From assembly GCA_963693055.1 (NCBI GenBank), contig OY843751.1, positions 1,792,001-1,856,000 on the forward strand: DNA of 64,000 bases, given 5' to 3'. This DNA comes from a bacterium. Its GTDB lineage: Bacteria > Zhuqueibacterota > Zhuqueibacteria > Residuimicrobiales > Krinioviventaceae. Shown in pieces: positions 23,912 to 44,114 of the stretch (position 1 is the stretch's first letter; each line of letters opens with the position of its first letter). The position numbers and the translations under genes are program-made. Below the pieces are notes generated by a model. It did no database searches, was not told where the DNA came from, and was given only the letters and a program-made list of their open reading frames with translations.

Positions 23912-24343
23912 ATGGATTTATCAACTTTAACATATGCCCCGGGTTCAAGAAAAAATAGAAAACGCGTAGGCCGAGGTGGCGCTCACGGTAAAACTTCTTG
24001 TCGTGGTCATAATGGTCAGCGATCCCGTTCCGGCTCTAAAAGACGTTTATGGTTTGAAGGTGGTCAAATGCCTATCATGCGTCGTTTACCGAAACGTGGT
24101 TTTTACAGTTTTACCCGGAAAGATGTACAAATCGTTAATCTTGCTGATTTGATCAAGATTCAAGCTGAAGAAATCACTCCTGAAGTATTGTTGGAAAATG
24201 GATTGATTCGTAAAATTGATGTTCCTGTTAAAGTGTTAGGCGATGGTGAATTGACAGGCAAGATTTCTGTTACCGCCAACGCTTTTAGCAAATCTGCAAA
24301 GGAAAAAATTGAAGCTGCTGGCGGGAGGGCTACAGAATTATGA
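23912..24343 (+). CDS. rplO: 50S ribosomal protein L15
   Basis: RVGRG, FEGGQMP, RRLPKRGF, KIEAAGG. Confidence 0.99.
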   Translation: MDLSTLTYAPGSRKNRKRVGRGGAHGKTSCRGHNGQRSRSGSKRRLWFEGGQMPIMRRLPKRGFYSFTRKDVQIVNLADLIKIQAEEITPEVLLENGLIRKIDVPVKVLGDGELTGKISVTANAFSKSAKEKIEAAGGRATEL

Positions 24344-28303: not shown

Positions 28304-28368
28304 TTTTGAATTTGATTCTAAAGTGTACGGAACTCGTTTCCGTTTGATCTGTTAGGAGGTTTATATAA

Positions 28369-30539: not shown

Positions 30540-30554
30540 GAAAAAATTATTTTT

Positions 30555-30588
30555 AAAAAGGGCAAGCATAGGCTTGCCCTTTTTTTTT
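30555..30588 (+). terminator. Intrinsic terminator ending the ribosomal superoperon
   Basis: AAAAAGGGCAAGC-ATAG-GCTTGCCCTTTTTTTTT. Confidence 0.92.
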
Positions 30589-30618
30589 GTATATTTATTC
30601 ATCCCTTTTGGTTTTCCA

Positions 30619-41339: not shown

Positions 41340-42467
41340 ATGACAGACGAAAAAAATAAAGACAAAAAAAATCAAAAAGAACAGGATAATACTGAAAATC
41401 AGAATACTGAAAATCAGAATACTGAAGATCAGAATACTGAAAATAGTAATGAACCTGATTCCGGAAAAGAAGAGAAAATCGATACAGACCGCGAGCAGGA
41501 TGCATTCAAAGAACCTGCCGGTTATGAAGATTATTATGATGCGGATGATGTTGATTATGATCCAATGACTGAATCACATACATCACGATCTGACCGACAT
41601 CCTGATGAAGAGCCCTTTGATGAGGAAGTTGATAAAGAAGGAAAACAGGTAGACGACAAGCAGGATGACTCTAAACCACCAACGTCAGATGATAACGATG
41701 ACGATGACTATGATGATGATGATGACGACGACGATGAAGATGGGGAAGGGAAAATGCCATTCCTTGATCATCTGGAAGAGTTGCGTTGGACAATTTTACG
41801 TAGTCTGGTTGCTGTCCTGGTTGGTGCTATTGTATGTTGGTTTTTCTCTGAACAAATCATCACATTGTTACGCAGACCCGGCCCCAAAGATATGGAATTG
41901 ATCTTTTTGTCACCTACAGAAGGTTTTATGACCTACATCAAAGTGGCAATATACGCGGGTATTGTTGTAGCTTTTCCCTATATCGCTTACCAATTCTGGA
42001 AATTTATTGTACCGGGCTTGTTGGAAAAAGAAAAAAAATTTGTACCACATATTGCATTCTTTACAACACTCTGTTTTATGGTTGGAGCCACCTTTGCCTA
42101 TATGGTAATTATTCCTTTCGGTCTTCGTTTCCTTTTGGGATTTGAAACCAGTTTTTTGCAAGCCAATATAACAATTGGTAAATATTTAGGTTTTGTAATT
42201 ACAATTATTCTTGTTTTTGGTGCTGTATTTGAACTTCCTGTCATGTCTTTCTTTTTAACTCATATTGGCATTATTACGCCTGATTTTTTGAGAAATAACA
42301 GAAGATATGGTATTGTGATTATATTTATTATGGCTGCAGTATTAACACCTCCTGATATTTTTACCCAGTTAATGCTTGCAGGCCCCTTGATTCTTTTATA
42401 TGAAATTAGCATTTGGGTATCTCGTTCTGTATATAAAAAGAAAGTCAAAGCTGAAGAAGCTGGTTGA
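41340..42467 (+). CDS. tatC: Twin-arginine translocase subunit TatC with a 138-aa acidic N-terminal extension
   Basis: MPFLDHLEELR begins at 41754; SPTEGF, FIVPGL, FELPV, TPPD, LYEISI. Confidence 0.95.
   Translation: MTDEKNKDKKNQKEQDNTENQNTENQNTEDQNTENSNEPDSGKEEKIDTDREQDAFKEPAGYEDYYDADDVDYDPMTESHTSRSDRHPDEEPFDEEVDKEGKQVDDKQDDSKPPTSDDNDDDDYDDDDDDDDEDGEGKMPFLDHLEELRWTILRSLVAVLVGAIVCWFFSEQIITLLRRPGPKDMELIFLSPTEGFMTYIKVAIYAGIVVAFPYIAYQFWKFIVPGLLEKEKKFVPHIAFFTTLCFMVGATFAYMVIIPFGLRFLLGFETSFLQANITIGKYLGFVITIILVFGAVFELPVMSFFLTHIGIITPDFLRNNRRYGIVIIFIMAAVLTPPDIFTQLMLAGPLILLYEISIWVSRSVYKKKVKAEEAG
41388..41447 (+). repeat. Four tandem copies of a 15-bp unit (AATACTGAAAATCAG, encoding NTENQ) in the tatC extension
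   Basis: Two exact copies, one with GAT for AAT, one ending AGT. Confidence 0.95.
41688..41741 (+). repeat. GAT/GAC-rich triplet run encoding a poly-Asp tract in the tatC extension
   Basis: Encodes DDNDDDDYDDDDDDDDED. Confidence 0.9.
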
Positions 42468-42476
42468 TAGACAAAT

Positions 42477-43292
42477 TTGAAGTATATTGATTTACATATT
42501 CATTCCACACATTCTGATGGAATTATGACTCCGGATGAAATTGTTCAGTTTGCTAAAAAAATTGAGCTTGAAGCAATTTCTATAACGGATCATGATTCTG
42601 TGGATGGTATTCAACCAGCGCTGGATGCTGGTGAAAAATATGGTATCAAGGTAATACCTGGAATTGAAATTAGTGCAAATCATTATGGCAAAGATTTACA
42701 CATTTTAGGTTACTTTTTTGATTATACTAATCCTGTTGTTCAGGATTATGGTAAGCGGATCCGATTATACCGTGAAAATCGTGCAAGGAATATTTTAAAA
42801 AAGTTAAAATCCTGTGGAATAGACATCCCTTACGAATTGGTTGAAATGAAATCCAATGGGGGGGTAATTGGTCGTCCGCATATTGCGGATATTTTAATTG
42901 AAGAAGGTCATGCGTATTCCTTTAGAGAAGCTTTTGATAAGTATTTAGGAGAAGCGGGAAAGGCATTTGAACCTAAAACGCTTGTAACTCCGCGAGAAGC
43001 TATTGATATGGTACACCAGGCGGGTGGTATTGCATGTATTGCGCATCCCGGTGTTGATGTGCCGGATGAAATTTTAATGCATCTAATAAAGATGGGTTTG
43101 GACGGAATAGAGGTATTTCATCCCAAACATATTGATGCAGAGATTAAACACTTTGAAAATTTTGCGAAACATCATAACCTTGTAATTACAGGCGGCTCCG
43201 ATTGTCATGGGCCCAGAACCTATGATGTGACTATAGGTGCATACAAGGTACCGGCTTTTTACCTCACAGAAATGGAAAAAGTTCTGGTTTGA
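42477..43292 (+). CDS. PHP-domain metal-dependent phosphoesterase (TrpH/YciV-like)
   Basis: IDLHIHSTHSDG, ITDHD, GIEIS, GRPHIA, AHPG, TGGSDCHG. Confidence 0.92.
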   Translation: MKYIDLHIHSTHSDGIMTPDEIVQFAKKIELEAISITDHDSVDGIQPALDAGEKYGIKVIPGIEISANHYGKDLHILGYFFDYTNPVVQDYGKRIRLYRENRARNILKKLKSCGIDIPYELVEMKSNGGVIGRPHIADILIEEGHAYSFREAFDKYLGEAGKAFEPKTLVTPREAIDMVHQAGGIACIAHPGVDVPDEILMHLIKMGLDGIEVFHPKHIDAEIKHFENFAKHHNLVITGGSDCHGPRTYDVTIGAYKVPAFYLTEMEKVLV

Positions 43293-43348
43293 TTTTTTAA
43301 TATTACCTGGAATATTGTTTGGGAATATTAATTAAAGTCCTTATGTTT

Positions 43349-43459
43349 AAGGTGAAAGTAATAAGCAACATATGGAGGTCGTTTCGTAGCCTCCCTCCTG
43401 CAACGACCTCTGTTGAATGGCAAGCTTGAAAGAGCTTGCCATTCTTACTTTTCCACCTT
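43349..43459 (+). ncRNA. Candidate small RNA: CCUCCCUC-loop hairpin plus GAAA-tetraloop terminator-like hairpin
   Basis: GAGGUCGUU/AACGACCUC stem with loop CCUCCCUC; 13-bp GAAUGGCAAGCUU-GAAA-GAGCUUGCCAUUC; possible closing stem AAGGUG..AAAGUAA / UUACUUU..CACCUU. Confidence 0.55.
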
Positions 43460-43493: not shown

Positions 43494-44114
43494 GTGATAA
43501 TAGAGAATGTTTCCGTTGGCCCTTTGGATGTGAACTGTTATATTGTGGGCTGTGAATCAACACGACAGGCTGCAATTATTGATCCTGGTGAAGATGAAGA
43601 AAAGATACTTGAGCGTTTAAAAGCTCTTAATTTGAATGCAACACATATTGTACTTACCCATGGTCACGTAGATCACATAGGAGCTGTACCTGAAATTCAA
43701 CAAGCCACAAATGCTTTAATTCTTATGGGACAGAATGATCGTTTGTTGGTTGAAAATGCTGTTTTGCAGGCAGAGATGTTTAGTCTAAGGGTGCCAGGTT
43801 TGTTTAATGTAGATCAATATCTTGCGGATAATGATGAAATTGTTGTGGGATCATTTTCATTCAAAGTTATTACAACTCCGGGGCATTCGCCTGGAGGAAT
43901 TTGTTTGCTATATGAAAGGCATCTGTGGGCAGGAGATACACTGTTTTTTAATTCAGTTGGCAGAACCGATCTTCCGGGGGGATCAATGGAAGAACTTTAT
44001 AGTTCTATAAAAAATAAATTGTATTTACTGCACCCTGAGACCATTGTTTATCCGGGCCATGGAGATTATACGACAATTGGTCATGAAATGAAACACAATC
44101 CTTATATCTCTTGA
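43494..44114 (+). CDS. Metallo-beta-lactamase-fold hydrolase (glyoxalase II-like)
   Basis: LTHGHVDHIG, TPGHSPGG, AGDTLF, GRTDLPGG, YPGHG. Confidence 0.93.
   Translation: MIIENVSVGPLDVNCYIVGCESTRQAAIIDPGEDEEKILERLKALNLNATHIVLTHGHVDHIGAVPEIQQATNALILMGQNDRLLVENAVLQAEMFSLRVPGLFNVDQYLADNDEIVVGSFSFKVITTPGHSPGGICLLYERHLWAGDTLFFNSVGRTDLPGGSMEELYSSIKNKLYLLHPETIVYPGHGDYTTIGHEMKHNPYIS

Follow-up and report, generated by a model that had tools for sequence, protein, structure and literature searches.

The window analysed here is the whole 64,000-nt stretch of DNA, part of a complete genome (G000). Within it, a 201-nt spacer separates a PHP-domain gene, preceded by tatC, from the gene of a metallo-beta-lactamase-fold (MBL) hydrolase (Table 1). 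The spacer carries a GC-rich island: its core (43374-43444) contains 53.5% GC and the remainder of the spacer 26.9%. In the nearby TatC protein (window 41340-41760), the TatC domain begins only at residue 143; it is preceded by an N-terminal extension, acidic and repetitive, some 140 residues long.

Table 1. Features of the element and its flanks in the window.
Feature	Position	Strand	Basis
PHP-domain gene, upstream neighbour, after tatC (41340-42467)	42477..43292	+	Pfam PF02811; tatC PF00902
-35 element GGAAT of a predicted SigR/SigH-type (ECF) promoter	43322..43326	+	sequence; motif in homologs; spacing enrichment in G000
-10 element GTT, exactly 18 nt past the -35 element	43345..43347	+	sequence; motif in homologs
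A/U-rich 5' arm, variable in length and sequence among homologs	43353..43373	+	homologs without common sequence
Hairpin 1: covarying lower stem, small bulge, near-invariant GUAG/CUGC upper stem including a U-G pair	43374..43411	+	
Loop CCUCCCUC, invariant and single-stranded, predicted seed; complements an extended Shine-Dalgarno sequence	43390..43397	+	
Hairpin 2 and U-rich tail, predicted intrinsic terminator	43415..43454	+	terminator-like site; covariation; U-rich homolog tails
MBL hydrolase gene, downstream neighbour	43494..44114	+	Pfam PF00753

Structure of the element

The island folds into two hairpins, as a preliminary description of the region had proposed; all coordinates and pairings quoted there are present in the window sequence. 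In hairpin 1, the lower stem GAGGUCGUU/AACGACCUC (43375-43383/43402-43410) and the upper stem GUAG/CUGC (43386-43389/43398-43401) display the loop CCUCCCUC. Hairpin 2 is a 13-bp stem with a GAAA loop (43415-43444), followed by TTACTTTTCC. The stem GGCAAGC..GCTTGCC of hairpin 2 recurs in the rplQ terminator (window 30542-30590), and similar terminators are found in several genomes of the class. Hairpin 2 may also terminate the upstream tatC-PHP transcript.

Two further pairings from the same description hold in the window without extending to the family. The CAACA/UGUUG extension of hairpin 1 does pair here but finds no support as a family feature. The outer stem AAGGUG-AAAGUAA/UUACUUU..CACCUU belongs to the predicted fold and is possible in the same-genus genome G001, but was not seen in other homologs: the predicted three-way junction is genus-specific and no feature of the family. 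As its 5' arm starts 2 nt past the -10 element, the outer stem straddles the likely transcription start, which we place near 43352-43355. In copies with an exact promoter motif, the predicted distance from start to loop is 28-61 nt.

The plus strand of 43349-43459 folds with -49.0 kcal/mol (z -7.96), and none of 200 shuffles is equally stable. Opening the loop costs 0.0 kcal/mol, and opening the loop together with the upper stem 4.6 kcal/mol. Pairing can thus begin at 8 free bases and extend to 16. The minimum unpaired probability of the loop is at least 0.96 in 19 of 25 copies and 0.18-0.80 in the other six.

Distribution and covariation

At gathering thresholds, Rfam gives no match in the window, cuckoo/ar14, 6C, RsaE and CsrB/Rsm included. 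A local comparison of the element with Rfam returned chance-level snoRNA and miRNA matches only (E 3-9), and 14 homolog loci a single chance miRNA match. The cmscan check called for in the preliminary description thus places the element in no Rfam family. A literature search with little coverage of subscription papers found no earlier description of the RNA, although large supplementary tables of motif-discovery studies could contain such an RNA.

The related hairpins that the same description suggested looking for are absent from the window's own genome, where the element is single-copy by blastn and nhmmer, and present in relatives. There are seven other CCTCCCTCC sites in this genome. The three examined are coding and on the opposite strand; two of them presumably read as a sulfatase-like motif, and one lies deep within what we take to be an aminotransferase gene.

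A DNA search of 61 relatives, together with an exact-pattern search of 167 genomes of the phylum, yielded a seed set of 17 copies. From these we built a covariance model, R1, and ran it over the 125 genomes that belong to the class; the remaining 42 of the phylum were covered by the pattern search. R1 finds a single full-length match (56-96 bits) in each of 19/125 genomes. Seventeen of these match by construction; G002 and G022 are new. The carriers comprise 17 of the 19 genomes of the window's family, plus G020 and G022 from two other families. The two family members that lack the RNA, G008 and G015, are 96% and 90% complete, and the next-best score, 32 bits in G008, reflects the terminator only. 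At 25 syntenic loci of RNA-less genomes no diverged copy scores (at most 17.6 bits with filters off).

In a wider genome collection, 15 of 36 pattern matches score with R1; the 21 others, taken from genome contigs as possible distant homologs, fail to do so. All nine metagenome matches score 77-96 bits, six being new sequences and three repeats of genome copies. Viral contigs gave no match to the element. A combined pattern of promoter and loop returned 12 non-homologous rows, of which ten were folded, none with hairpin 1. At one locus of another family (L232; G147:C174:2686-2768, minus strand), GGAAT-N18-GTT is followed by GCCTCCCTCCAG directly 5' of a GC-rich terminator. This locus has no hairpin 1, its promoter lies within the upstream ORF and it does not score with the model; it is possibly a diverged or convergent 3'-end RNA.

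Compensatory changes are found in both hairpins across homologs, in keeping with the stems first proposed. In an alignment not fitted to the model (A2), 95.3% of cells are paired, against 32-61% in slid controls; the shuffle control disregards relatedness and yields no probability. RNAalifold returns the same structure. Both partners vary in 10 of 24 pairs. Such changes affect 4/9 pairs of the lower helix of hairpin 1 (5/9 in A3) and 5/11 pairs of hairpin 2. A3, the fitted alignment of 24 distinct rows, agrees with A2 but is biased to the model. The loop CCUCCCUC is invariant in A2 and is also kept in G002, G022 and all metagenome copies; the surrounding 16-17 nt, including the U-G pair, are near-invariant. 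U-rich tails follow hairpin 2 in the homologs. Over the 575 cells of A3, 58 are G-U and 18 mismatched, which together with the U-tail indicates that the plus strand is the RNA strand.

A predicted ECF-type promoter

The preliminary description was right about the hairpins but missed the most informative part of the element, an ECF-type promoter motif, GGAAT-N18-GTT, at 43322-43347. The same motif is the consensus of Streptomyces SigR, and an ECF-like motif stands at 182 mapped starts in Chlorobaculum, according to the available part of one study (10.1101/172254). GGAAT-N18-GTT occurs in exact form in 15 of 19 genome copies and in 9/9 metagenome copies, 60-93 nt before the loop, and is kept across flanks that otherwise cannot be aligned. 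Among the four remaining genomes, G004 has GGAAA-N19-GTT, G010 has GGAAC-N17-GTT further upstream, and the pattern finds none in G006 and G022. A sigma-70 scan found no promoter for the element.

We counted the motif in G000, using our own gene calls (5251 genes) and intergenic positions at most 200 nt from a start. With a spacing of 18 it precedes 52 genes, about 12 of which are expected by chance; spacings of 14-17 and 19-22 give 9-23 genes. GGAAC peaks at spacings 17-18, and the GGAAA control is flat. From the 52 genes we picked 15 by eye, a selection that allows no enrichment test, and Pfam names 14 of them: Fe/Mn superoxide dismutase (SOD), Redoxin/AhpC-TSA, GroES (Cpn10), Rrf2, G6PD, transhydrogenase alpha, PDH E1, an AAA ATPase, a PALP enzyme, pirin, MarR, the ribonucleotide reductase small chain, trehalose synthase/phosphatase and lipoyl ligase. 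In content, the set resembles a regulon for redox and protein quality. At 28329-28353, in the window's ribosomal protein operon, a GGAAC-N17-GTT whose end is 15 nt ahead of the rpsD start may be an internal ECF promoter.

G000 encodes 25 proteins with sigma-70 region 2, seven of which were scanned against families. For two, encoded at G000:C1:5302297-5302908 and 5766240-5766836, the best family is TIGR02947 (SigH_actino), at 200.6 and 205.6 bits; both scores are below the cut-off of 251.55, though they exceed the next family by more than 75 bits. The genes of these SigH/SigR-like factors adjoin photolyase and desulfoferrodoxin genes. One of the factors occurs in 43/43 genomes of the order, while the RNA occurs in 19. 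A search for RsrA (TIGR03988) gave five weak matches, none above cut-off. Among the weak RsrA matches is an orphan, Cys-rich protein of 79 residues with an HxxxCxxC motif (L414; G000:C1:2699834-2700073), a candidate anti-sigma factor for the SigH-like proteins.

Altogether, the element has its own promoter and terminator at the motif level, independent of the flanks, and a conserved, accessible single-stranded seed. Very probably it is transcribed independently from the ECF-type promoter.

Candidate targets

Against 600 start regions, the seed reaches a 5th-percentile hybrid energy of -16.2, below all 20 shuffled seeds; its mean is better than that of 18/20 shuffles and matched by 2/20. We ranked 5250 start regions by hybrid energy and 152 genes after correction for accessibility. 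Since kin are not independent, we put no P value on target conservation.

The complementarity to the secY ribosome-binding site reported in the preliminary description, GGGAGGGCTAC at 24323-24333, is real and ranks 4/5250 by hybrid energy alone, but it is not specific. The site consists of the last rplO codons. Its energy is -24 or better for ten of the 12 RNA-less genomes and -18 to -25 for 17 carriers (29 of 30 loci were readable), and with accessibility the site falls to rank 99/152. Being equally strong where the RNA is missing, it is no diagnostic target. One point speaks for secY: G008, the one RNA-less family member examined for it, has lost the match (-13.8). The rplL match noted in the same place proved unremarkable (rank 770/5250). 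The best raw energy belongs to hup, a site kept only in the same-genus G001 and rejected for that reason.

A cold-shock gene (csp, G000:C1:2651788) ranks 5/5250 by energy and 6/152 with accessibility. Among its syntenic orthologs, those of 10 of 14 carriers have GCAGGAGG and/or GGAGGG, an extension missing in the other four carriers and in all five RNA-less genomes. These five controls, however, come from a single family and retain CAGGAGG, and their range of energies (-13.4 to -16.9) lies inside that of the carriers (-10.0 to -21.0). Paralogs of csp have mostly weak sites. This csp gene is the best target candidate, albeit a weak one. In nine of 14 carriers, the 5' UTR of the csp ortholog shows by eye a long-range stem at its 5' end, TTTGTAG...CTACA(A/G)A (L249-L251, L253-L257, L259), a possible cis-regulatory structure; it is absent from the short UTR of G000.

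Next comes a hydrogenase operon of the Mbh type, whose first membrane subunit (G000:C1:2488685) is the second candidate. Five of the 12 operon genes are in the top 3%, a level reached by 14 of 500 permutations. Of 11 carriers readable at the subunit (three partial ones dropped), eight show CAGGAGGGA, versus none of four RNA-less genomes. With accessibility, the subunit ranks 68/152. For four other genes of the operon, carriers and non-carriers do not separate. The operon as a whole (L277; G000:C1:2483342-2495596) is of the Mbh-type group 4 hydrogenase/Mrp kind. Judging by gene names that are partly our own assumption, its two upstream subunits are presumably sulfhydrogenase-like. The membrane subunit is found in 18/125 genomes of the class, always in this order.

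Feedback of the RNA on the sigma gene was considered too. Among 30 loci, strong sites occur in five of the 14 from carriers and in one of the 16 from RNA-less genomes; G000 has none. The conserved SigH-like sigma gene (L102; G000:C1:5302297-5302908) starts with GTG in G000; a Shine-Dalgarno sequence is missing there and a -10-like motif lies a short way upstream, which suggests a short or absent leader; its orthologs in one clade have a strong G-rich site instead. Family-wide scans for GAGGGAGG or CAGGAGGG before ATG revealed, by eye, no gene recurring across most genera. The mRNA targets thus remain candidates, and none is conserved across all carriers.

Alternative readings

One alternative accepts the independent transcript and makes its loop a decoy: rather than repress mRNAs, it would bind a protein as an anti-SD mimic, or serve as a sponge for a single further RNA rich in G. 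Such a role would fit the lack of a target common to all carriers, the near-invariance of the segment around the loop and the resemblance of the loop's CCUCCUG to CCUCCUU, the tail of the genome's 16S rRNA. However, a seed that opens on pairing would likewise keep both strands of a weak stem invariant; G002 and G022 alter the upper stem yet retain CCUCCCUC; and, in the available text on a comparable system, C-rich loops pair with mRNAs (PMC6486639). We regard a decoy as unlikely. At the 16S 3' end of G000 (minus strand), helix 45 begins GUAGCC, like the upper stem of the RNA, a likeness that may be coincidence.

The neighbouring genes bear on whether the element is a separate unit at all. It could be the 5' leader or attenuator of the downstream gene, to which the ECF promoter would then belong; a leader switch for the MBL hydrolase was the other suggestion of the preliminary description. 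Promoter, hairpin and terminator do stand in leader order, and the downstream gene is co-directional in 19/19 genomes. Yet that gene varies: it encodes the MBL hydrolase in just five genomes, what we take to be an M24-type peptidase in 12 and other proteins in two, and its distance to the loop ranges from 79 to 404 nt. G006 and G010 have an additional gene between the RNA and the M24-type gene, which in these two genomes lacks the promoter motif. In RNA-less genomes, no GGAAT/GGAAC-type motif precedes the M24-type gene (0/17) or follows PHP (0/10); G008 and G015 have only a GGAAA-N19 match, at the start codon. Pairing of the loop with the 5' arm of the terminator, judged by eye, is possible only in some copies. 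Because neighbours are swapped while the RNA stays, and the promoter is missing where the RNA is missing, the element is no MBL leader, and we hold a leader function in general to be quite improbable.

Still less probable, in our view, is that the element merely forms the 3' end of the upstream mRNA, a terminator with a stabilising hairpin and no separate transcript. The RNA always stands close behind an upstream gene, and hairpin 2 resembles a terminator type common in the lineage, with the same stem as after rplQ. But a terminator of the PHP gene alone leaves the invariant loop and the exactly spaced promoter of 15/19 genomes unexplained, and the upstream gene itself varies: it is PHP in 15 genomes, a different gene, presumably RACo-like, in four, and of a third type in the copy L243. 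Promoter and RNA travel together and outlast both neighbours, which speaks against a leader and a mere terminator alike.

That the functional strand is the minus strand, as a CsrA-binding RNA with GGA loop motifs, or that the element encodes a short peptide, seems highly improbable: CsrA is encoded, the minus strand also folds well (z -5.98) and a 28-codon frame exists in G000 and G001 (other copies have no equivalent), but the G-U pairs, the U-tail and the promoter all indicate the plus strand, the ATG overlaps the -10 element with no common start in other copies, and indels break the frame in G006, G007 and G012.

The stand-alone small RNA with an exposed CU-rich anti-SD loop that the preliminary description had envisaged is thus supported: it is conserved, independent of its neighbours and equipped with a promoter motif and a terminator of its own. 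What we have is very probably an undescribed and conserved small-RNA gene, the founder of a new, narrowly distributed family within a known kind of sRNA.

Comparison with known small RNAs

The element does not belong to the CcsR/cuckoo, 6C or RsaE families. With CcsR of Rhodobacter sphaeroides, a cuckoo RNA with relatives in Rfam ar14, it shares a CU-rich anti-SD loop and, here by prediction, an alternative-sigma stress promoter and a link to oxidative stress (PMC8034643). In the available account, CcsR has two hairpins, each with CCUCCUCCC, and its tandem copies are processed from a DUF1127 mRNA under RpoHI/II in Alphaproteobacteria; here, one copy with a single seed hairpin carrying CCUCCCUC follows an ECF-type motif. 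No DUF1127 gene (the CIN1 context) lies beside the element: its neighbours are PHP and MBL by Pfam, and those of the homologs are other long ORFs.

The 6C RNA of Actinobacteria has C runs in more than one loop, whereas the present, non-actinobacterial RNA has a single CU loop. The 6C loops, named L2 and L3, pair with mRNAs without Hfq or ProQ, as far as the available text goes (PMC6486639), and neither chaperone was found here. In Corynebacterium, 6C is driven by SigA/SigB (PMC5014011, in the part available). RsaE/RoxS of Firmicutes is proposed to block ribosome loading via UCCC (PMC9266662, same restriction), a motif contained in the element's loop; it belongs to another phylum and has SrrAB as its regulator, and the element has no Rfam match.

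FoxI of Fusobacterium nucleatum is oxygen-induced and Hfq-independent, and binds across the Shine-Dalgarno sequence. Like the sigmaE-dependent MicA, RybB, VrrA and MicV, it is an ECF-controlled sRNA that forms a noncoding repressor arm, in the accessible portion of that work (PMC9546586); we propose the same role here. Those RNAs depend on sigmaE-type factors and act on envelope targets, whereas the present one is linked to SigR/SigH-like factors and a motif set that looks redox-related; a relationship in sequence or structure is not to be expected.

The promoter motif of the element has the same consensus as the SigR regulon of Streptomyces coelicolor (ECF12). SigR and SigH are both ECF12 members (PMC7826278), and the targets of SigR act in thiol redox balance, in proteolysis and in modulating the ribosome (PMC4921905), in the parts of these sources at hand. 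Those parts name tmRNA as a SigR-controlled RNA and no base-pairing sRNA. A further difference is that no RsrA gene is adjacent here.

Proposed mechanism and implications

We now propose that a SigR/SigH-like sigma factor transcribes the two-hairpin unit from GGAAT-N18-GTT as an RNA of roughly 100 nt. The inducer would be oxidative or thiol stress, as the genes in the motif set and the analogy with SigR suggest. Through its exposed CCUCCCUC loop, the RNA would base-pair with ribosome-binding sites rich in G and repress translation, forming the repressing arm of the sigma response. Pairing would begin at the free 8-nt loop and open the weak 4-bp upper stem, giving GCAGGAGGGAG-type duplexes presumably without a chaperone; searches of the window's complete genome found neither Hfq nor ProQ. 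Taken as a whole, from own promoter to repression at ribosome-binding sites under stress, this mechanism is the account that we think rather likely. More tentative, and open to considerable doubt, is its specific form: that in KSB1, an uncultured phylum, a chaperone-independent anti-SD RNA serves as the noncoding repressor arm of a SigR/SigH-type response to oxidative stress and, under oxygen or thiol stress, represses a cold-shock RNA-binding protein and an oxygen-sensitive membrane hydrogenase.

The RNA adds a compact sRNA family, supported by covariation, to KSB1, a phylum for which our literature search found no small-RNA paper, and connects it with a predicted stress regulon of the SigR kind, one legible from the genome itself. 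If the proposal is true, the design that couples a sigma factor with an sRNA reaches from sigmaE-type to ECF12-type regulons. If confirmed, an ECF12-type redox response would have a base-pairing repressor arm that works without Hfq.
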